Source of the DNA: an uncultured virus (IMG/VR IMGVR_UViG_2636416135_000002)
Lineage: Duplodnaviria > Heunggongvirae > Uroviricota > Caudoviricetes
Reading direction: 5' to 3' (one strand)
Virus record (IMG/VR): IMGVR_UViG_2636416135_000002
DNA: 20,000 bases
The position numbers were made by a program, and so were the translations under genes. The notes beneath the pieces are model-generated. The model was not told where the DNA came from. It ran no database searches and worked only from the letters and a program-made list of their open reading frames with translations. Positions 8,190 to 20,000 of this stretch are shown one piece after another. Position 1 is the stretch's first letter. Each line of letters starts with the position of its first letter.

Positions 8190-8219
8190 TTGACTGCACA
8201 ATTTGTGCAGGCTTATGAT
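8190..8219 (+). promoter_or_regulatory. Sigma70/A-type promoter with MerR-type operator
   Basis: -35 TTGACT (8190-8195), 18-nt spacer, -10 TATGAT (8214-8219). Perfect dyad CTGCACAA-T-TTGTGCAG (8194-8210) overlaps the -35/spacer. AT-rich ATAAATTTT x2 (8160-8177) lies upstream. Confidence 0.8.
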
Positions 8220-8244
8220 TTACTTGAAAAGAGAGGAGCTTAAC

Positions 8245-9294
8245 ATGAAAAAATTAAATGAAGTTTGCAAAATTGTTGGACTAAATAGAAGGACGATTCA
8301 AGAATACGAATTCAATGGTTTAGCAAAGACTCCTGAAACAAAAAATAAATATGGACATTTGTTATATTCTGATGAGGATATTGAACGACTGTGGCAACTT
8401 AGATTCTATAAAGAATTGGGATATAAAAAAAGAGACATAGAAAAAATATTTAACGATCCTAAATATGACAAGCAAAAATCATTAGAAGCACAAATAAAGC
8501 TACTTGAAAAAAAGAAACAAGACTTAGAAAATCTGATTAACGTTGCAAAAGGGATGAGTACAATGGGAGTGAATACTTTCTCTCGAAAATCCAGTTCAAC
8601 ATTATTGGATGATATGCCTTTTGATACAGCAATATCTGTGCTTGGATTAGCTTTTAAAAATTTGTCAGATGAGGACGATTTGGATGAAATGATTACAGAT
8701 TCTTTAAATGAGGATGATTTAGATCTTTGGTTCGAAAATATTGAGAAGATCATGGAACAAGGGGGAAAAGGAAAAGCTTTTGATAATATAGAAGTGCAAG
8801 ATTTAGTTCATAAATTATATGATCTTACATCACCGTTATTCTCGCCATCTATGATGATGTTTGAATGGGCATATTTATGTTTGGTACCGGGATCTGAATT
8901 TGCTAATGAAATAGATCAGATTTTTGGAGTTAATAAATCTATTTATCTATTTGAAGCTATACAAACATTTATTAAGAATAATAAAAATAATGCTTATGAT
9001 AATGAATTACTTGATTGTTTTGAAAATATTAGAAAGTTGGGCTTAAAAAAATATCCAGCTAATTCGGATGAAGTGCAGGAAGAGGTAAGAAAAATTCATA
9101 GACTGATAGAGCAGATGAAGATTTATAACGAAAAAGGTCAAATGAATCTCATGACTTCATTTAGTAATTTATTTGCGAGTAATGAATATAAACAAATTAT
9201 TGATGGCGGAAAAGATAAAGGTGTTTCTTGGTTTATATCCAGAGCTCTTGAAATTTATATAAAAAATATAGAAGGAGGAAATGCTAATGAGTAA
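8245..9294 (+). CDS. MerR-family transcriptional regulator with two TipAS-like C-terminal domains
   Basis: N-terminal HTH LNEVCKIVGLNRRTIQEYEFNGL...GHLLYSDEDIERLWQLRFYKELG, then coiled coil. Repeated motifs FDNIEVQDLVHKL..YLFEAIQTF and ANSDEVQEEVRKIH..FISRALEIY. GAGGAG RBS before ATG 8245. Confidence 0.82.
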   Translation: MKKLNEVCKIVGLNRRTIQEYEFNGLAKTPETKNKYGHLLYSDEDIERLWQLRFYKELGYKKRDIEKIFNDPKYDKQKSLEAQIKLLEKKKQDLENLINVAKGMSTMGVNTFSRKSSSTLLDDMPFDTAISVLGLAFKNLSDEDDLDEMITDSLNEDDLDLWFENIEKIMEQGGKGKAFDNIEVQDLVHKLYDLTSPLFSPSMMMFEWAYLCLVPGSEFANEIDQIFGVNKSIYLFEAIQTFIKNNKNNAYDNELLDCFENIRKLGLKKYPANSDEVQEEVRKIHRLIEQMKIYNEKGQMNLMTSFSNLFASNEYKQIIDGGKDKGVSWFISRALEIYIKNIEGGNANE

Positions 9295-12890: not shown

Positions 12891-13460
12891 ATGAGTAAAG
12901 AAATTCGATTTATCAACAGCAAGTATGATGATTTGTTCCGCATTCCGGACGGAGCAACAATCCAGATTGAGTTTTCCAATGAGCCGGTCATCAAGACTTG
13001 CAAATATATTGATGATTATCATACCAAGATCGGAAGCGAGCTATTTCACATCTGTCAGTTTGCAGAGATGATGGAGCGTGTCGGAGCAAAGTATTATCCG
13101 GAAGATGAGATTATAGACGAACAAGCAGCATGGAAAGTCGGTCAGAACCATTATCTTGCATTGCAGACCTCGGAAGATGGGTATGACTACACCCTGTATG
13201 ACAAGAACTTCAATGAGATCGATGGCGGTCAGCTTGATGATCCAGAGCTTTCAATGAAAGAAGCCAGAAAAGAAATCTTGAACGACTTTAAGCTTGGCAG
13301 AAAAGACTTAGTAACAATTGACTATGATGATCTTCTTGAAAAAGTGGAACAGGTCGAAACCAAACAGATTTCTTCAGTGCTTGAGAAGCTTAACAGCCAT
13401 AAAAAATCCATTTTGGAAAATAAACAGTCATCAGAGATGTTCTTTGATGAGGAAAGATAG
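12891..13460 (+). CDS. Polyvalent-protein-associated gene with LPD16-like domain
   Basis: IRFINSKYDDLFRIPDG..YIDDYH..FHICQFAE N-terminal module plus YLALQTSEDGYDYTLYDKNFNEIDGGQLD (LPD16-like). Confidence 0.7.
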   Translation: MSKEIRFINSKYDDLFRIPDGATIQIEFSNEPVIKTCKYIDDYHTKIGSELFHICQFAEMMERVGAKYYPEDEIIDEQAAWKVGQNHYLALQTSEDGYDYTLYDKNFNEIDGGQLDDPELSMKEARKEILNDFKLGRKDLVTIDYDDLLEKVEQVETKQISSVLEKLNSHKKSILENKQSSEMFFDEER

Positions 13461-13468
13461 AGGAAACT

Positions 13469-14062
13469 ATGATGAAGATAGAAAAATGGGACGAAATCAA
13501 TGGAGCCAGCCATGAGAAAAAGCTAGAAGCATTTATTGAATCGACCAACGACTGCTATGCCATCATGCAGCTTAAAAGAACGGAAGAAACAGCAATGGAA
13601 CGATTTGCTTCGATGACAGAGCTGAACTATTTGGGAAAGACGCCACAGATCGATCATTATGAAATCGTTTATGTCGCACCTATGGAATCGACTGAACCGC
13701 AGAGCGTTCTGCTTGAAAGCCTATACGAAAAATTCAACCTCTATCATCCGGAAGATTTTCGAGGACATAGTTTATCGGTCAGCGACATCGTGGCATTGAA
13801 AACAAATGATATGGTATCCTGCCATTACGTTGATACGATTGGTTTCAAAGAACTGCCGGACTTTATGAAGCCTGAGAACTATTTGAAAAATGCAGAAATG
13901 TCGATGGAAGATGATTATGGAATGATTGACGGTGTCATCAACAACGGAAAAGGCATGGATAGTCTGGAGAAACCATCTGTTTTAGAAAAACTGAAAGAAC
14001 CGTCAGCCATAGGAGAAATCAAAAAGCCTTCCAAAGCACATTTGGAAAGAGAGCTGGAATGA
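13469..14062 (+). CDS. YodL-domain / DUF4316-like protein
   Basis: YodL signature LESLYEKFNLYHPEDFRGHSLSVSDIV..HYVDTIGF; DUF4316-like ENYLKNAEMSMEDDYGMIDGVINNG. Confidence 0.85.
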   Translation: MMKIEKWDEINGASHEKKLEAFIESTNDCYAIMQLKRTEETAMERFASMTELNYLGKTPQIDHYEIVYVAPMESTEPQSVLLESLYEKFNLYHPEDFRGHSLSVSDIVALKTNDMVSCHYVDTIGFKELPDFMKPENYLKNAEMSMEDDYGMIDGVINNGKGMDSLEKPSVLEKLKEPSAIGEIKKPSKAHLERELE

Positions 14063-14268
14063 TGGAATTTACGCATGATGAAAAAATATTGATACTGATT
14101 TATCAGACAGGAACAAGAAAAGATTTGATTGAAACATTGGAACAGATGAAAGCACAGCTTGATTATGATGAAACAGAACTAAAGGAAATGAGCGAATCGC
14201 TTCTTCTGAAGCTGAACAGGATGAGCGACAAGGAATTCGACGGTCTGTGCTTTTATCCAGACATTTAA
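14059..14268 (+). CDS. Transposon-transfer-assisting (TTRAP-like) small protein
   Basis: FTHDE..LI.IYQTGTR..LIE.L..M...L..DETELKE...SLL.KL..MSD.EF..L.FYPD pattern; ATGA overlap with the previous gene. Confidence 0.78.
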   Translation: MMEFTHDEKILILIYQTGTRKDLIETLEQMKAQLDYDETELKEMSESLLLKLNRMSDKEFDGLCFYPDI

Positions 14269-14285
14269 GGACGGGAGGTTAGCAG

Positions 14286-17200
14286 ATGAATCAAAAAGAA
14301 AAATACTATGCCAGCGTAGCTGCAAGTACGATTAAGGAAATCTCAAGCAGTGTGGAATCATGGACTTCGTTTCTTACGACGATGGGAAAGAACTATGATT
14401 TCAGCTATCCGGATCAAGTGATGATCCATGCCCAGCGACCGAATGCGACGCTATGTATGGAATTTGACCAGTGGAAAGAAGAAAAGTACAGATATGTGAA
14501 GCGAGGCTCTAAAGGAATCGCCTTGTTCGTTACGGATAGCGAAAAACCTTATCTTAGATATGTATTTGATGTTTCGGATACCGGCAGCCGAAGAAATTCT
14601 CGTGAGCTTGAAAAACTATGGAAATTTGATGACATTCATCGTATTCCGATTCAAGAAGCTATGGAGAAAGCTTATGGAGCTAAAAAAGAATGGAACATGG
14701 AAATGCAGCTTCAAAATGTTGCAGAAAAGCTTGCGGAAGAATATTTCAACGACAGAAGAAACGAGATGGCTGACATCATTGCGGAATCTTTCTTAGAAGG
14801 TTATGATGAACTTAACATAGAAGTAGCCTTTACAAGAGCAGTATCAACAAGCGTTGCCTACAGCCTTTATTCAAGATTGACGGATAATGCGGAAGCCTAC
14901 TTCGATGAGGAAGATTTCAGAAATATCTTTGAATTCAACACAAGGAAAAGCATCAATGCTTTAGGTACAGCAGTCAGCACAATCAGTACCGAGATGTTTC
15001 TTGAAATCGAAAAGACAGTGATTGCATTTGAACAACAAAAAGAGGTCGAAAGGAGCGAGAGATATGACGACACAGATGAACTACAGCCAGATTGGAGAAT
15101 ATTTGATTCCGGAAATTCAGTTACAGAACACAGAAGCGAAGCCATTGGGAAAATACGCAAGGATGAGGAGAGCGTTCCTCAAGGAGAACAAACCGATGAC
15201 TTACAACGACATGATTTTGACGGAGACATTGTTTCCGCACCTTTGGGAAGTGGACGAAACAGCGAACAAGAGAATGGAAGTGCTGATGAGCCAGTTGCTG
15301 GAGAAGAATCCGGCACCGAGCAAGAAGGAAAACCAGATGTCTTGGGTGCAGCACATGAACGCACTAAAGGCACAAGCCGAAGAAATGATTATGACGGAGT
15401 TAATCAACAACTAACCTTAGACCTGTTCCTAAGCGAGCAGGAACAGATCAGATGGATAGATGAAGCGGAGAGCGTAGAAAGCAATGCGACCTTCGCTTTT
15501 TCTTTTGCCCAAGAAGATATTGATACCATCCTGATCCATGGAAGCAATACTGATAATGCCAGAATGATGGTTGCGACAGAATTTATGAAGCAGAAATCAG
15601 CTGATGAAATTGCTGAAAGCTTGAAAACAATCTATCATGGCGGATACGGTCTTAAAACAAGTAGAGGTGCGGTTTCTGCTTGGTATGGAGAAGATGGCAT
15701 TCACTTGGCTAAGGGAAATACAGCAAGATATTCTGATGTGAATATCATTTCTTGGAAAGAAGCGGCAGAGCGTATCAGTGAACTGCTTGAAAACGGGCAG
15801 TTCGCAACCAATGTGGAGCTTGTTGAAGCAGAAAACTTTGAAAAAACACAGATTGCACAGAAACTGTGGTATCTTGTGCGTGATTTCAGCGATGAAAGCA
15901 AGGAACTTCATCTTTTTCCAAGTCTTTCAGATATCAGAGGCATTGGATTTCCGAATGAAACCAAGGAGCTTGCTCAAAAACTGAATGATACTCACTTCTG
16001 CAATCAGCTAGCTGCTGAATATGAAGATTTTATCCGGAAGTACGAAGCAGACAGAAGCATTCTTCGTTTTCACTATCATCGTGTATATGATTTGGAAAAA
16101 TCAATCAAAGAACTTTTTCTTGAACGAAGGAACTATCAAACTGAAATGTTCGACTTCCCTGAAAGAAAAACCTTTATTACGGACGATGAAATCAACGCAG
16201 ACCTTGCAAGAGGCAGCGGCTTTTCCGGTGGAAAAGGAAGAATCTATGATTATTTTACGGAAAGCCACGATACGAAAAGCAAGGCAGACTTTTTGAAAAA
16301 TGAGTTCGGTACAGGTGGTCATTCTCATGCCTTGTCCGGTGCGACTCATAGCGGACAGGATCATAGTGCCAAAGGAATTGTTTATAAAAAAGAGGGCTGT
16401 GAAACTGTCAATCTGAACTGGACGCAGGTAGCAAACCGTATCAGCGAGCTGATAAAAAAAGACCGTTATCTGACAGCTGAGGAGCTTGAAAAAAGACAAT
16501 TAAAAGAAGCCGAGCCATTAGGAGCTGAGGTGGTGAAAGAAGCGACAATAGAAGCAGATGAAGTTTTAGAAGACATTGCTGCTGAAGAAGTATTAGAGGA
16601 CTATCCTTTTGCGGTCGGTCAAAGAGTGTTTCTTGAAGGTACGGAGTTTGAGATTACAGAAATCAGAGAGCATGAAGTACAGCTTCTTGATCCGTCTTTG
16701 CTCTATCCGATCTTTCGAGTGGAAAGCAAAGCTGATTTTGAACGATTGGTGGAGCTTGAAGAAAAGAATGAAGAAATCAAAGAAGAAACTGTTGAGATAC
16801 CGGCAGCCAACTACACCATCAGCAACGAGCATTTAGGTGAAGGCGGTCCGAAACAGAAGTTTGCAAGAAACATTGAAGCAATAAAACTGCTTTATGACTT
16901 GGAAAAAGAAAATCGGAATGCGACTTTTGAAGAACAGGAGATATTGTCGAACTATGTCGGCTGGGGTGGACTTGCTGACGCATTTGACAGCAATAAGCCA
17001 AACTGGTCAAACGAATATCAGGAACTGAAGAATCTGCTTCCAGAAAAGGAATATGAGATGGCACGAGCTTCGACGCTGAACGCCCATTATACAAGTCCGG
17101 TAGTCATTAAGGCGATGTATGAAGCGTTGTCGCAGATGGGATTTAAAACAGGGAATATCTTGGAGCCATCTATGGGGATTGGCAACTTCTTTGGGCTTCT

Positions 17201-20000
17201 TCCGGAATCCATGAGAGGAAGCAATCTTTACGGAGTTGAGCTTGATTCTATCACTGGTCGTATTGCCAAAAAGCTTTACCCGAATGCTGATATTAAAATT
17301 AGCGGATTTGAAAAAACAGATCGAAGGGATTTCTATGATATATCTATCGGCAACGTGCCTTTCGGGAATTACAAGGTCAGTGACAAACCATACGACAAGC
17401 TTGGTTTTTCAATCCACAACTATTTCTTCGCTAAGGCTCTGGATCAAGTAAGACCGGGCGGTATCGTTGCTTTTGTTACAAGTCGCTATACGATGGATCA
17501 GCAGAGTCCCGATGTCAGACAATATCTTGCTCAAAGAGCAGAGCTTCTTGGTGCAGTCAGACTTCCCAACAACGCATTTAAAGCCAATGCCGGAACAGAT
17601 GTTGTGTCAGATATTATCTTCTTGCAGAAACGGGATCATCCGATTGACATTGAGCCGGATTGGGTGCATTTGGGACAGAGTGAAGATGGATTTGCCATTA
17701 ACAGCTATTTTGTCGAAAATCCTCAGATGGTGCTAGGAAGGCTTGAAAGTCAGTCAACCCAGTACGGTAAAGAAGAATGTACGGTTGCTCCGATTGAGGG
17801 TACAGAACTATCAGAGCTTTTAAGCAATGTAATCAAGAATATTAACGGAAGCTATGTTGAAGCAGAGGTATCGGAACAGCCACTTGTGGGAGCTGCGGAA
17901 ACTATTCCGGCAGCACCGGATGTAAAGAACTTCTCTTATGCTGTGGTTGATGATGAAATCTATTTCAGAGAAAACTCAGTGATGAGGCTTTGTGATTTCA
18001 ATGATACTGCCAAAGGCAGAATCAAAGGCATGGTAGAGCTGAGAAAAATCGTCAATGAGCTGATTGACTATCAGTTGAATGATTACTCCGACGAGGATAT
18101 CAAAACGAAGCAGAAAGAGTTGGATATAGCTTATGATGAATTTTCATCTAAGTATGGCTTGCTTAATTCAAGAGCCAACTCGATGGCATTTGCAGATGAT
18201 TCTTCCTACTACCTTTTATGCTCCCTTGAGAACATTGATGAAAACGGAAATCTTGAAAGTAAGGCGGATATGTTTACCAAAAGAACGATCCGACCGGAAG
18301 TTAACATTACAAGCGTGGATACGCCGATTGAAGCGTTGGCAATCTCCATCGGAGAAAGAGGTGTGGTAGATCTTCCGTATATGGCAGAGCTTGTAGGTAC
18401 GCCAGATGAATTTGAGGACATCATCAGCGAGCTAAAAGGTATCATTTTTAAAAATCCATTGGCTTCAGATAAGGATTTTGACGGGTGGCAGACTGCTGAT
18501 GAGTATTTGTCCGGCAATGTGCGTGAGAAGCTTAAAATCGCCCGTCTGGCAGTCCAAAACGATAACAGATATGCTTCTAATGTAGAGGCACTGGAAAAGG
18601 CACAGCCAAAGGATTTGGACGCTTCTGAGATTGATGTAAGAATCGGTGCAACATGGATCGACAAGGATTATATCCAGCAGTTCATGGAAGAAACATTTGA
18701 AACACCGTTCTATATGAGAAGAAGCATTGAAGTGAAATATGCTCCTTTGACAGCTGAGTGGCAGATTACGGGTAAATCCGTACCGGGCAGACATGATGTC
18801 AATGCATATGTAACCTATGGTACGGACAGAGCCAATGCTTATCGTATTTTGGAGGATTCTTTGAATCTGAAAGATGTGCGTATCTATGATACGATTGAAG
18901 AACCGGACGGAAAGCAGAAACGAGTGCTGAACAAAAAGGAAACGACGCTTGCTCAGCAGAAGCAGCAGGCAATCAAGGACGCTTTTCAAGACTGGATATG
19001 GAAAGATCCGAAAAGAAGGCAGGAGCTTGTTGCGAAGTATAATGAGATGTTCAACTCTACACGTCCTCGTGAGTTTGACGGTTCTCATATTCGCTTTGGT
19101 GGAATGAACCCGGATATCAAGCTGAGGGAACATCAGAAAAATGCGATTGCTCATGTCCTATATGGCGGCAATACTCTTCTCGCTCATGAAGTTGGTGCGG
19201 GAAAGACTTTTGAAATGGCAGCTTCTGCAATGGAAGCGAAACGATTAGGATTGTGTCAGAAATCGCTCTTTGTCGTGCCGAACCACTTGACGCTTCAATG
19301 GGCAAATGAATTTCTAAGGCTTTATCCAAGTGCCAAGCTGCTTGTAGCAAGCAAGAAAGACTTTGAAACAGCCAATCGAAAGAAGTTCTGTGCAAGGATC
19401 GCTACCGGTGATTATGACGCTGTGATTATCGGTCATTCGCAGTTTGAAAAGATACCGATTTCAGCAGAAAGACAAGAAAAGCTGCTAAGGGAGCAGATTG
19501 ATGAAATTGAAAATGCTTTAGCAGAAATGAAGTACCAAAGAGGTGAAAACTTTTCTATCAAGCAGATGGAAAAGACAAGAAAGTCGTTGCAGACAAGACT
19601 GGATAAGCTGCTTGCCAACGATAAGAAAGATGATGTCATTACCTTTGAACAGCTTGGTGTTGACCGTCTGTTCGTTGATGAAAGTCATAGCTTCAAGAAT
19701 TTATTCCTCTATACAAAAATGAGGAATGTAGCCGGCTTATCAACATCAGAGGCTCAGAAGTCATCAGATATGTTTATGAAGTGTCGCTATATGGACGAAC
19801 TGACAGACGGAAAAGGTGTCATCTTTGCAACAGGAACTCCCGTCAGCAACTCAATGACGGAGCTTTATACGGTTATGAGATATTTGCAGTACGGAACACT
19901 TCAGCAGAAGAGTTTGACGCATTTTGACTGTTGGGCTTCGACCTTTGGAGAAACAGCGACAGCAATAGAACTTGCTCCAGAGGGCTATACTTTAGTAGGA
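14286..20000 (+). CDS. Giant ArdC-N / N6-adenine methyltransferase / SNF2-like helicase (DarB-like), >=1905 aa, open at window end
   Basis: GGAGG RBS, ATG 14286, no in-frame stop seen to 20000. ArdC-N-like QVMIHAQRPNAT..YVKRGSKGI..YVFDVSDT; MTase LEPSMGIGNF (17160-17189) and GNVPF (17349-17363); helicase AHEVGAGKT (19182-19208), DESH (19677-19688), ATGTPVSNS. Confidence 0.93.
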   Translation, partial: MNQKEKYYASVAASTIKEISSSVESWTSFLTTMGKNYDFSYPDQVMIHAQRPNATLCMEFDQWKEEKYRYVKRGSKGIALFVTDSEKPYLRYVFDVSDTGSRRNSRELEKLWKFDDIHRIPIQEAMEKAYGAKKEWNMEMQLQNVAEKLAEEYFNDRRNEMADIIAESFLEGYDELNIEVAFTRAVSTSVAYSLYSRLTDNAEAYFDEEDFRNIFEFNTRKSINALGTAVSTISTEMFLEIEKTVIAFEQQKEVERSERYDDTDELQPDWRIFDSGNSVTEHRSEAIGKIRKDEESVPQGEQTDDLQRHDFDGDIVSAPLGSGRNSEQENGSADEPVAGEESGTEQEGKPDVLGAAHERTKGTSRRNDYDGVNQQLTLDLFLSEQEQIRWIDEAESVESNATFAFSFAQEDIDTILIHGSNTDNARMMVATEFMKQKSADEIAESLKTIYHGGYGLKTSRGAVSAWYGEDGIHLAKGNTARYSDVNIISWKEAAERISELLENGQFATNVELVEAENFEKTQIAQKLWYLVRDFSDESKELHLFPSLSDIRGIGFPNETKELAQKLNDTHFCNQLAAEYEDFIRKYEADRSILRFHYHRVYDLEKSIKELFLERRNYQTEMFDFPERKTFITDDEINADLARGSGFSGGKGRIYDYFTESHDTKSKADFLKNEFGTGGHSHALSGATHSGQDHSAKGIVYKKEGCETVNLNWTQVANRISELIKKDRYLTAEELEKRQLKEAEPLGAEVVKEATIEADEVLEDIAAEEVLEDYPFAVGQRVFLEGTEFEITEIREHEVQLLDPSLLYPIFRVESKADFERLVELEEKNEEIKEETVEIPAANYTISNEHLGEGGPKQKFARNIEAIKLLYDLEKENRNATFEEQEILSNYVGWGGLADAFDSNKPNWSNEYQELKNLLPEKEYEMARASTLNAHYTSPVVIKAMYEALSQMGFKTGNILEPSMGIGNFFGLLPESMRGSNLYGVELDSITGRIAKKLYPNADIKISGFEKTDRRDFYDISIGNVPFGNYKVSDKPYDKLGFSIHNYFFAKALDQVRPGGIVAFVTSRYTMDQQSPDVRQYLAQRAELLGAVRLPNNAFKANAGTDVVSDIIFLQKRDHPIDIEPDWVHLGQSEDGFAINSYFVENPQMVLGRLESQSTQYGKEECTVAPIEGTELSELLSNVIKNINGSYVEAEVSEQPLVGAAETIPAAPDVKNFSYAVVDDEIYFRENSVMRLCDFNDTAKGRIKGMVELRKIVNELIDYQLNDYSDEDIKTKQKELDIAYDEFSSKYGLLNSRANSMAFADDSSYYLLCSLENIDENGNLESKADMFTKRTIRPEVNITSVDTPIEALAISIGERGVVDLPYMAELVGTPDEFEDIISELKGIIFKNPLASDKDFDGWQTADEYLSGNVREKLKIARLAVQNDNRYASNVEALEKAQPKDLDASEIDVRIGATWIDKDYIQQFMEETFETPFYMRRSIEVKYAPLTAEWQITGKSVPGRHDVNAYVTYGTDRANAYRILEDSLNLKDVRIYDTIEEPDGKQKRVLNKKETTLAQQKQQAIKDAFQDWIWKDPKRRQELVAKYNEMFNSTRPREFDGSHIRFGGMNPDIKLREHQKNAIAHVLYGGNTLLAHEVGAGKTFEMAASAMEAKRLGLCQKSLFVVPNHLTLQWANEFLRLYPSAKLLVASKKDFETANRKKFCARIATGDYDAVIIGHSQFEKIPISAERQEKLLREQIDEIENALAEMKYQRGENFSIKQMEKTRKSLQTRLDKLLANDKKDDVITFEQLGVDRLFVDESHSFKNLFLYTKMRNVAGLSTSEAQKSSDMFMKCRYMDELTDGKGVIFATGTPVSNSMTELYTVMRYLQYGTLQQKSLTHFDCWASTFGETATAIELAPEGYTLVG
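15064..15414 (+). CDS. tnpV: TnpV-family protein (116 aa) nested in the +1 frame of the helicase gene
   Basis: AAAGGAG RBS at 15049-15055, ATG 15064. Sequence Y..IGEYLIP..PLGKYARMRRAFLKE..Y..MIL...L.PHL.EVDE.A..R...QMSWVQHMNALKAQAEEMI..ELI matches the TnpV pattern along its whole length. Confidence 0.8.
   Translation: MTTQMNYSQIGEYLIPEIQLQNTEAKPLGKYARMRRAFLKENKPMTYNDMILTETLFPHLWEVDETANKRMEVLMSQLLEKNPAPSKKENQMSWVQHMNALKAQAEEMIMTELINN
19980..20000 (+). mobile_element. Probable left end (attL) of a Tn4451/TnpX-type serine-recombinase element inserted in the helicase gene
   Basis: GA-GGGCTATACTTTAGTAGGA resembles the Tn4451 left terminus as I recall it (GA dinucleotide, then GGGCTATACTTTAATAG); contains the -10 box TATACT (19986-19991). 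Only 21 nt visible. Confidence 0.55.

Follow-up and report, generated by a model that had tools for sequence, protein, structure and literature searches.

The nested gene and its host gene

The window, by which we mean the whole 20,000-nucleotide stretch of DNA analysed here, carries genes for VirD4/TraG, TrbL_2, PrgI, a VirB4-like protein, NlpC/P60, a CD1107-like protein, TTRAP, YodL/DUF4316 and LPD16, together with the 5′ part of a very large gene for a polyvalent protein. A second, complete gene of the TnpV family lies wholly inside the latter in the +1 frame. A megablast search of 14286-16200 against plasmids gave no match. The features of the locus are as follows.

14286..20000, + strand: 5′ part of the polyvalent protein gene, 1904 codons (ORF listing); open at its 3′ end, where it leaves the window
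14286..15062, + strand: head domain, residues 1-259, predicted to be folded and probably ArdC-N-like and ssDNA-binding (AF2, Foldseek, tblastn)
15019..15021, + strand: TGA stop of the +1 frame, which shuts the TnpV frame upstream, 42 nt 5′ of the tnpV ATG
15048..15055, + strand: predicted internal Shine-Dalgarno (SD) sequence GAAAGGAG of tnpV, ending 8 nt 5′ of the ATG
15064..15414, + strand: 116-codon tnpV with a TAA stop, frame +1 with respect to the polyvalent gene (Pfam, PHROG, conservation)
15063..15431, + strand: helicase-frame reading of the overlap, residues 260-382, a D/E/G/S/R-rich spacer predicted to be disordered, which separates the head from the next folded domain (AF2)

A sequence-only reading of this DNA had described a 116-codon +1-frame ORF with an AAAGGAG ribosome binding site wholly within the helicase ORF, and both the ORF listing and the translation agree, with the +1-frame ORF spanning 15022..15414, AAAGGAG at 15049-15055, the ATG at 15064 and the TAA at 15412-15414. 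The helicase frame runs across the overlap without a stop, as had been claimed, and its translation includes the quoted segments ERYDDTDELQPD..., GEESGTEQEGKPD and GVNQQL. The nested product aligns over the full Pfam TnpV profile PF14198, positions 1-111 of 111 (E 8.9e-37; 125.9 bits, cut-off 27), which is the outcome that the sequence-only reading had expected of this search. It also matches PHROG 24764 (E 9.7e-31), which carries no functional assignment, and as a small protein (116 aa, the family having about 110-125 aa) on a mobile element of Bacillota it is a TnpV in context as well as in sequence. The AF2 model has a mean pLDDT of 85.8. NCBIfam holds no family for TnpV, a PDB sequence search found no relative (best E 0.088), Foldseek returned nothing at E<=0.001 (best E 0.86) and the best VIA-align match (Z 5.7) covered a short helical stretch within the range common for the tool, with no solved structure alike.

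With regard to function, one paper offers an Xis-like role of TnpV as a postulate (PMC3158075), and another states that PF14198 proteins 'may be involved in transfer' (PMC12084326). We infer that TnpV is a small accessory factor at a DNA-processing or establishment step of mobile-element transfer. Since free-standing tnpV occurs in elements without the polyvalent protein, TnpV cannot absolutely depend on it.

The full-length database protein that is 100% identical to the part of the polyvalent protein in the window (P0003) has 2446 aa. In the window, an SNF2-rel_dom match (E 3.8e-10, 39.8 bits against a Pfam cut-off of 24.9) identifies the product as a SWI2/SNF2 protein and is accompanied by a Pfam ResIII match (E 3.7e-8). 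A methylase-like region matches Eco57I under the Pfam cut-off (E 4.5e-4, 20.8 bits, cut-off 25.3) and an NCBIfam MAD2 methyltransferase far under the family cut-off (E 3.4e-5). The label ArdC-N, given to the head domain in the sequence-only reading, is weakly borne out. Residues 1-259 have no Pfam match at E<=0.001, but the top three Foldseek rows are all ArdC of R388, if weak (E 0.19-0.41), and tblastn finds 27-32% identity to coding sequences annotated 'ArdC-like ssDNA-binding domain-containing protein'. The AF2 pLDDT of this domain is mostly 70-90.

In the spacer that follows (residues 262-382) the pLDDT is about 25-28 and the model has no secondary structure. The spacer aligns without indels among homologues and is at least 111 aa long in 102 of 103 representative homologues; one homologue (P0191) is entirely without it, in what looks like a secondary deletion, which makes loss of the spacer from the polyvalent protein possible. 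The host-gene family comprises 8,797 representative clusters at E<=0.001, and thousands of predicted full-length proteins of about 2450-2800 aa span the region.

Conservation and selection in both frames

Relatives in genomes were gathered with alignment A1, a query with the single protein having confirmed no relative. All 45 genome loci spanning this region have an intact +1-frame tnpV of 114-117 aa, with the large ORF open across it; among them are relatives with as little as 34-39% identity in the head domain, and 24 of the 45 share one identical tnpV sequence. Over all fetched loci the helicase frame has no stop in any of 124 nested copies, compared with 1-18 stops (median 7) in 37 free-standing copies, while the remaining alternative frame has 9-20 stops in nested and 5-17 in free-standing copies. 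The nested class required a complete tnpV ORF, so that an intact gene in 124 of 124 is partly a matter of definition, and the metagenome sample, having been collected with queries of the nested type, is biased towards the nested arrangement. The expectation that both frames and the ribosome binding site would stay intact held among the homologues. The nested ORF at 15064-15414 is confirmed, and the sequence comparisons indicate genuine, conserved dual coding, with neither reading broken in more than 100 related elements.

Among 17 loci, helicase codon position 3 is the most variable in the flanks (0.42-0.46) and the least variable in the overlap (0.119), where variability by TnpV codon position 1, 2 and 3 is 0.187, 0.114 and 0.294; the periodicity within the overlap thus switches to the TnpV frame, the result foreseen for a frame-specific substitution analysis. 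In the same loci mean amino-acid identity is 0.765 for TnpV against 0.594 for the spacer. When the synonymous codons of TnpV were redrawn with its amino acids fixed, none of 5000 redraws for the window preserved an open helicase frame, and the open fraction was at most 0.0004 for 20 of 21 distinct sequences and 0.019 for the other one (L045). T-ending TnpV codons occupy none of 22-32 'dangerous' sites as against 6-16 of 44-60 safe ones. At equal TnpV identity, synonymous codon differences are fewer between nested than between free-standing pairs in eight of eight identity bins (for example 0.38-0.40 against 0.58-0.59), with sequences reused among pairs that are not independent. The sequence-only reading had placed the constraint on the nested gene, and it is indeed stronger there, but the helicase frame is selected too; because that frame is kept stop-free and synonymous change in tnpV is suppressed, the constraint does not lie on the nested gene alone.

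The arrangement extends to plasmids of Virgibacillus, C. perfringens, C. botulinum, Listeria and B. cereus, in which a +1-frame TnpV lies about 700-760 nt into SNF2/helicase coding sequences, the one from Listeria barely passing Pfam (29 bits). Among the TnpV genes of five gut genomes 14 of 28 are nested. It had been proposed that annotation discards such genes, and this is true for six plasmid records, pathogen plasmids included, whose listed gene tables give the large coding sequence alone; in records from other depositors the nested gene is annotated, under the name 'hypothetical protein'. With the large gene alone in the tables of those six records, a conserved protein of conjugative elements is systematically under-counted. 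A literature search of titles, abstracts and main-text passages, with most subscription journals lying outside it, found no paper that describes the nesting of tnpV.

Start site, expression and competing explanations

Of the 90 distinct nested loci, 81 have a GGAG or GAGG tetramer no more than 20 nt from the start and 89 have an SD-like tetramer, with no clear SD at the chosen start of two divergent nested copies (L194 and L199). Read in the helicase frame, GAAAGGAG encodes Glu-Arg-Ser, and E255, R256 and S257 are invariant in alignments A1 and A4. The 60-nt window around the start folds at -2.5 kcal/mol, compared with -10.2 +/- 3.2 elsewhere in the gene, where none of 259 background windows is as weak. 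Each of the 21 loci compared has weaker folding in the start window than the mean of its own gene's background, and in five of the 21 this is unremarkable, with more than 20% of background windows equally weak. These features suggest that TnpV is translated from the ATG at 15064 by internal initiation. No promoter-like site was found on the + strand within 14286-15064, and the three in 13400-15600 compare with 4.7 +/- 2.5 expected; tnpV is probably co-transcribed with the large gene. RNA libraries of one study hold contigs of a relative about 92% alike across 14000-15931, a kind of match that cannot show transcription, starts or translation. As index shares were 0.05-0.16, no habitat is claimed.

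The explanation that best accounts for the whole, and which we regard as very likely, is that this is DNA of a conjugative element of gut Bacillota that is read in two frames, both under selection. One mRNA probably serves both readings. Ribosomes coming from 14286 would read 15063-15431 as a disordered spacer of roughly 120 residues, tethering the ArdC-N-like head to the methylase/SNF2-helicase body in a protein of about 2446 aa. Other ribosomes would bind the internal GAAAGGAG in a weakly folded, purine-rich window, start at the ATG at 15064, make the folded 116-aa TnpV in the +1 frame and end at the TAA at 15412-15414. In the sequences compared, the amino-acid sequence of TnpV dominates the substitution pattern, the helicase frame is held open because TnpV codons that end in T are avoided ahead of AAx, AGx and GAx, and the length of the spacer almost never falls below that of tnpV. 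Nesting may in this way couple both the inheritance and the expression of TnpV to the polyvalent protein.

An SD-like sequence inside an ORF can also stimulate frameshifting, as in prfB and dnaX, and the +1 frame in the window is open for 42 nt before the ATG, which might point to a programmed +1 frameshift that fuses the head domain to TnpV (about 375 aa) with no separate TnpV made. The +1-frame stop, however, lies anywhere from 3 to 798 nt before the ATG (median 87 over the 90 distinct nested loci), with no fixed place, and in one locus (L046) it overlaps the SD. An ATG stands at the homologous position in all 90 of these loci, partly by construction because the nearest ATG was chosen, and free-standing TnpV begins at the same residue; we consider such a frameshift highly improbable. 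Slightly less probable again is a +1 ORF that is decaying, or that is open by chance, and is carried along by the need of the helicase for a spacer. The helicase frame is selected to stay open, as this would require, but substitutions follow the codon periodicity of TnpV and not that of the helicase, the TnpV sequence (0.765) is better conserved than that of the spacer (0.594), all 124 nested loci have an intact ORF (a complete ORF being the condition of entry) and the start of the ORF combines an SD with weak folding. The sequence-only reading had also named an assembly or sequencing frameshift, by which the 'helicase' would be separate genes around an ordinary tnpV, as what could overturn it. 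To this we assign next to no probability, the comparative data ruling it out: both open frames recur in complete chromosomes, isolate drafts, plasmids and metagenomes of many sources, and the predicted full-length proteins that cross the region number in the thousands.

Origin, known systems and significance

How the two genes came to share one stretch of DNA can be read in either direction. The sequence-only reading derives the polyvalent protein from a read-through fusion over an older tnpV. This may be so, and it fits the contrast between a folded TnpV and a disordered spacer as well as codon usage, for which the TnpV frame is the better match to the host gene in 13 of 20 loci, about as good in roughly five and worse in two (L001 and L002). 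However, no unfused intermediate, with head, tnpV and helicase as separate genes, was found among 48 free-standing loci, none of which carries the head or the downstream domain, and in these loci tblastn with the N-terminal query matched only the alternative frame of tnpV itself. The TnpV tree, unrooted, with 116 columns and from a nested-biased sample, places free-standing clades within nested clades and implies 10 changes between the two states, at least three of them forced by well-supported branches, and gives no direction of change.

The opposite history, to which we give roughly one chance in four, is that the TnpV family was born by overprinting in the spacer of the polyvalent protein and that free-standing tnpV genes are later escapes. 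Nesting recurs at one place, about 240-290 codons into the gene, in each of the ArdC-N-like/SNF2 lineages that were looked at and extends to TnpV copies that barely pass Pfam, as in Listeria; the position of the free-standing clades and the absence of the unfused arrangement would agree with it, and an escape would require merely the copying of a segment that already bears an SD and an ATG. On the other hand it is TnpV that is folded and better conserved and the spacer that is disordered, while in known cases of overprinting the younger frame is usually the disordered one. The better fit of the TnpV frame to host-gene codon usage in most loci also argues against overprinting, and the tree that might favour it has the limits given above. 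Somewhat more doubtful still is a fuller version, in which the whole TnpV family goes back to the nested site and TnpV is a partner of the polyvalent protein, synthesised in cis so that it can target either the head domain or the transferred DNA while the element establishes itself in the recipient, with the free-standing tnpV of Tn4451-type transposons, mobilizable elements and resistance plasmids as repeated escapes. If this were true, the pair would be an ancient two-in-one module of Bacillota.

The host gene has the architecture of the ArdC-N/methylase/SWI2-SNF2 polyvalent proteins described by Iyer et al. 2017 in a conjugative T4SS context (PMC5512222), and the main text of that paper contains 'TnpV' 0 times and describes no nested gene. 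The TnpV of Tn4451/Tn4453 belongs to the same family PF14198 but is free-standing, beside a TnpX-like large serine recombinase according to PMC3158075, and in free-standing copies the helicase frame, open here, is broken by 1-18 stops. In the loci we examined free-standing copies likewise adjoin TnpX-like large serine recombinases, and free-standing PF14198 proteins are given for 16 of 24 MOBQ2 mobilizable elements of Faecalibacterium in PMC12084326.

The closest parallel to the nesting is comS within srfAB of Bacillus subtilis, described as a small protein whose translation begins internally, on the shared transcript and in a different frame from the very large multidomain host gene (PMC12915044; bioRxiv 10.1101/520783). 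The likeness is that of a small gene in the other frame of a very large multidomain gene, the internal start being inferred in our case. comS, which is restricted to Bacillus, encodes 46 aa and lies over a catalytic NRPS module, whereas tnpV, with a predicted product of 116 aa, belongs to a family that is also free-standing, overlaps a disordered spacer and occurs across several orders of Bacillota. According to the Ribo-RET preprint (10.1101/520783), comS and rpmH/rnpA were the only two out-of-frame nested cases described before it. rpmH inside rnpA of Thermus thermophilus is likewise an out-of-frame bacterial pair on the same strand, but consists of two housekeeping genes in one lineage, unlike the tnpV/polyvalent pair on mobile elements. 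In Rz/Rz1 of phage lambda one gene is wholly embedded in the +1 frame of the other, also on a mobile genome, and the two products are subunits of one spanin complex, a partnership that is hypothetical for TnpV and the polyvalent protein.

Out-of-frame nested genes in bacteria are very few, and tnpV is a candidate with strong comparative support that is very widespread. One protein family found under both single and double coding offers a natural experiment on the constraint that an overlap imposes, and a hidden gene can be the reason for both the length and the sequence of a 'disordered linker' in a giant protein. By tying TnpV to an anti-restriction/establishment protein of conjugative elements, the nesting also provides a tractable start on its function.

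The element and its two overlapping reading frames

The window belongs to a conjugative element of Bacillota and its ORFs match the VirD4/TraG coupling protein, TrbL_2, PrgI, a VirB4-like ATPase and an NlpC/P60 hydrolase, with further family matches to CD1107-like, topoisomerase, LPD16, YodL/DUF4316 and TTRAP. A MerR/TipAS-type regulator gene (8203-9294) lies amid the transfer genes, and an MT-A70 methyltransferase ORF (2052-2711), if begun at its first ATG, shares 88 nt with the 3' end of the TrbL_2 ORF (1273-2139); its true start may be further downstream. SNF2/ResIII helicase motifs are present in the large ORF, as is a weak match to an Eco57I-type methylase, and a database protein 100% identical to its product is 2446 aa long. 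ORF listing and translation reproduced the coordinates, length, ribosome binding site and helicase-frame strings that a sequence-only reading had given for a TnpV-like gene nested in this ORF, and the Pfam TnpV profile was covered over its whole length by the 116-aa +1-frame product (E 8.9e-37, 125.9 bits, cut-off 27).

Features of the two ORFs (window coordinates, strand)
14286 to window end, +, large ORF, a single ORF of 1904 codons
15019-15021, +, TGA upstream of tnpV in the +1 frame, after which the +1-frame ORF opens
15048-15055, +, Shine-Dalgarno (SD) sequence GAAAGGAG, with 8 nt between its end and the ATG
15064, +, ATG start of tnpV, +1 frame
15412-15414, +, TAA stop of tnpV, +1 frame

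Among 90 distinct nested sequences GGAG or GAGG occurs within 20 nt of the start in 81 and an SD-like tetramer in 89, the commonest gap being 8 nt (53 of 90 loci); all 90 have the ATG where it is expected, a count partly true by construction because the nearest ATG was picked. Two divergent nested copies in one genome (L194 and L199 in G002; profile scores 75 and 66) are without a recognisable SD at the chosen start, and their true starts may differ from those chosen. A stop closes the +1 frame 3-798 nt before the ATG (median 87), and as this closure has no fixed place it argues against a frameshift fusion of the head to TnpV, which we disfavour. The 60 nt around the start in the window fold at -2.5 kcal/mol compared with -10.2 +/- 3.2 in 259 windows from the same gene, none of which folds as weakly. 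The start was weaker-folding than its own background mean in 21 of 21 loci, with on average 9% of background windows folding as weakly (24-32% in five loci). No promoter-like site was found on the + strand within the head-domain coding region of the window, so the simplest reading is that tnpV would be co-transcribed with the large gene.

Conservation of the nesting and constraint on both frames

A search that used the first 560 residues of the large protein gave 7,539 proteins at E<=0.001 (7,992 scored), and all of the best 120 cover the whole query. In 17 of these 120, with identity down to 52%, the linker is without any indel, and across the 17 its edges are fixed, beginning with Glu-Arg-Ser and a Tyr/His/Asn/Asp-Asp/Glu/Gly pair and ending with Gln-Gln-Leu-Ser/Thr, edges whose DNA supplies the +1 frame with its SD, ATG and stop codon. 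A genome scan with the large-protein alignment gave 47 loci, two of which (L042, L043) stop short of the region; the remaining 45 all retain an intact +1-frame tnpV (114-117 aa) under an open large ORF, preceded by GAAAGGAG or a close variant, as expected if both frames and the ribosome binding site are kept. In L019 the large ORF meets a stop 68 nt past tnpV, close to the contig end. The nesting is the same in three loci (L044, L045, L046) whose head domain is just 34-39% identical. The 45 loci and the window together have 21 distinct tnpV sequences, one of them common to 24 loci (within L010-L038) with near-identical flanks and records labelled as many different genera, including Phascolarctobacterium and MAGs called Prevotella, Paludibacteraceae and Bacteroidales, a pattern explained either by one element having moved widely and very recently or by mis-binning of contigs.

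Substitution patterns differ between the overlap and its flanks. The flanks show normal coding-region periodicity and the overlap that of a gene whose codons begin one base later.

Mean pairwise difference at helicase codon positions 1/2/3 (17 loci)
Head domain: 0.185/0.141/0.418
Overlap: 0.292/0.191/0.119
Next 300 codons: 0.285/0.188/0.459

Over the same number of loci TnpV has a mean amino-acid identity of 0.765, compared with 0.749 in the head, 0.657 downstream and 0.594 in the spacer. In an RNA-library contig of a relative (run X3, depth 9) a 1-base insertion and a 1-base deletion lie 10 nt apart within the overlap (window 15146/15156), a compensated shift changing three codons in both frames that may be an assembly error.

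When the TnpV residues of 21 sequences were fixed and codons redrawn by each locus's own usage (5000 draws), the helicase frame was open in 0 to 0.0004 of draws for 20 sequences and in 0.019 for L045. A helicase-frame stop arises from a T-ending TnpV codon before AAx, AGx or GAx, and T-ending codons number 0 at the 22-32 stop-making sites versus 6-16 at the 44-60 other sites. Scans with the TnpV alignment (35 viral-collection and 80 metagenome loci, plasmid records added) gave 161 complete ORFs of 100-135 aa, with short or cut ORFs left out (including L058, L078-L084, L086, L087 and L138). The 124 nested copies contain no helicase-frame stops, and their covering ORF begins ~780-880 nt upstream wherever the contig allows, whereas the 37 free-standing copies have 1-18 (median 7), with 8-13 even where TnpV is up to 77-79% identical to a nested copy; stops in the other alternative frame number 9-20 in nested and 5-17 in free-standing copies. 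At equal TnpV identity same-residue codon differences are lower in nested than in free-standing pairs in 8 of 8 bins (0.38-0.40 versus 0.58-0.59 at 50-70% identity, 0.27 versus 0.43 at 70-80%), the pairs not being independent. Taken at the level of sequence comparison, support for dual coding of tnpV and the helicase gene is strong.

The two products and the origin of the nesting

TnpV is predicted with confidence (46 sequences, pLDDT 85.8) to fold into a beta-hairpin and, after it, four helices. In a model of the first 572 residues of the large protein folded parts flank residues 262-382, the overlap, on both sides, and these residues have a pLDDT of ~25-28 and no secondary structure. Both domain edges are visible in 103 of the 150 best among 8,797 representative homologues. 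In 102 of these 103 the spacer measures 111-332 aa (median 122), and in the other (P0191) 19 aa, so that it can exceed tnpV and almost never falls below it. P0191 keeps Glu-Arg-Ser and Asn-Asp, the SD and ATG remnant, with the next domain following directly, and has the look of a precise, secondary loss of tnpV by deletion.

The sequence-only reading had the polyvalent gene arise by read-through across an ancestral tnpV, and an older tnpV overprinted by the spacer is the origin we think somewhat the more probable: the models show a folded TnpV opposite a disordered spacer, TnpV is the more conserved of the two, and in 13 of 20 loci its frame has the better fit by codon usage (mean 0.069 versus -0.056; control windows 0.139). 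Birth of tnpV within the spacer, with free-standing copies as later escapes, would be in keeping with nesting in every host-protein lineage examined, with no unfused intermediate found among the free-standing loci, and with free-standing clades inside nested ones in a 112-sequence TnpV tree (10 changes, at least 3 forced) that has no root, is short and rests on biased sampling; we regard it as a real but lesser possibility.

Breadth, annotation and free-standing relatives

A tblastn search with TnpV matched 39 plasmid records, nine under a CDS named SNF2-related, helicase-related or, once, pentapeptide-repeat protein. In each of six plasmid records (Virgibacillus, C. perfringens, C. botulinum, Listeria innocua pLIS40, B. 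cereus pBFI_3 and Anaerococcus) the large CDS contains, ~700-760 nt from its beginning, a TnpV-like +1-frame ORF that has an upstream start. Pfam scored the first three at 76-86 bits and Listeria at 29 bits; our own profile gave 61 bits for B. cereus and weak scores of 18-21 bits for Anaerococcus and S. agalactiae. The gene tables of all six list the large CDS and leave the nested gene unlisted, although these PLSDB tables are incomplete and original records may differ. The reverse holds in a Cohnella herbarum plasmid (L051): its table gives a 'TnpV protein' and a short hypothetical gene on the opposite strand, and omits the ORF of more than 6 kb that covers tnpV in the other frame. For the commonest element, protein databases carry the nested TnpV from at least 1000 contigs, named as a 'hypothetical' or 'uncharacterised' protein. 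Five gut Clostridia genomes with such elements (G001-G005) contain 28 TnpV matches (14 nested, 14 free-standing); each carries 4-8 TnpV genes, unusually many copies for a protein without known function.

Free-standing tnpV lies directly 3' of TnpX-like large serine recombinases (L050, L066, L067, L071, L072, L085, L168, L192), between a double-HTH gene (HTH_3 x2) and restriction-modification or other cargo (L054, L055, L092, L096, L097, L121, L133, L137, L142), in some cases with ATPase cargo genes downstream, or after Mob_Pre relaxases or VirD4. A DUF6809 gene often follows (noted in L056, L172, L182 and L195). Free-standing tnpV seems to mark the core/cargo border of small mobile elements. 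Two loci (L064, L065) encode a 124-aa TnpV with a single helicase-frame stop and a very long branch inside a nested clade, flanked by a DUF6017/HTH gene on one side and an AbiEii-like ATPase on the other; they may represent a recent escape from a nested position.

Nested tnpV, if translated as its sequence suggests, would follow the same mechanism as comS in srfAB and rpmH in rnpA. Unlike these, it overlaps the disordered tether of a polyvalent protein, has free-standing relatives that act as a built-in control, and occurs across many genera. Lambda Rz/Rz1 offers another parallel. A Ribo-RET preprint (10.1101/520783) gives comS/srfAB and rpmH/rnpA as the sole two such bacterial cases described before it. 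TnpV is absent from the main text of the polyvalent-protein survey (PMC5512222), and our literature search found no published description of tnpV nested in a polyvalent gene.

Sequence, family and structure searches found no fold or sequence relative of TnpV with known function. For Tn4451 transposition TnpX alone suffices. One report (PMC3158075) has TnpV 'postulated' as Xis-like, and another (PMC12084326) places it, with function unknown, in 16 of 24 MOBQ2 mobilizable elements of Faecalibacterium. We infer that TnpV may assist DNA processing or establishment during transfer as a small accessory factor.
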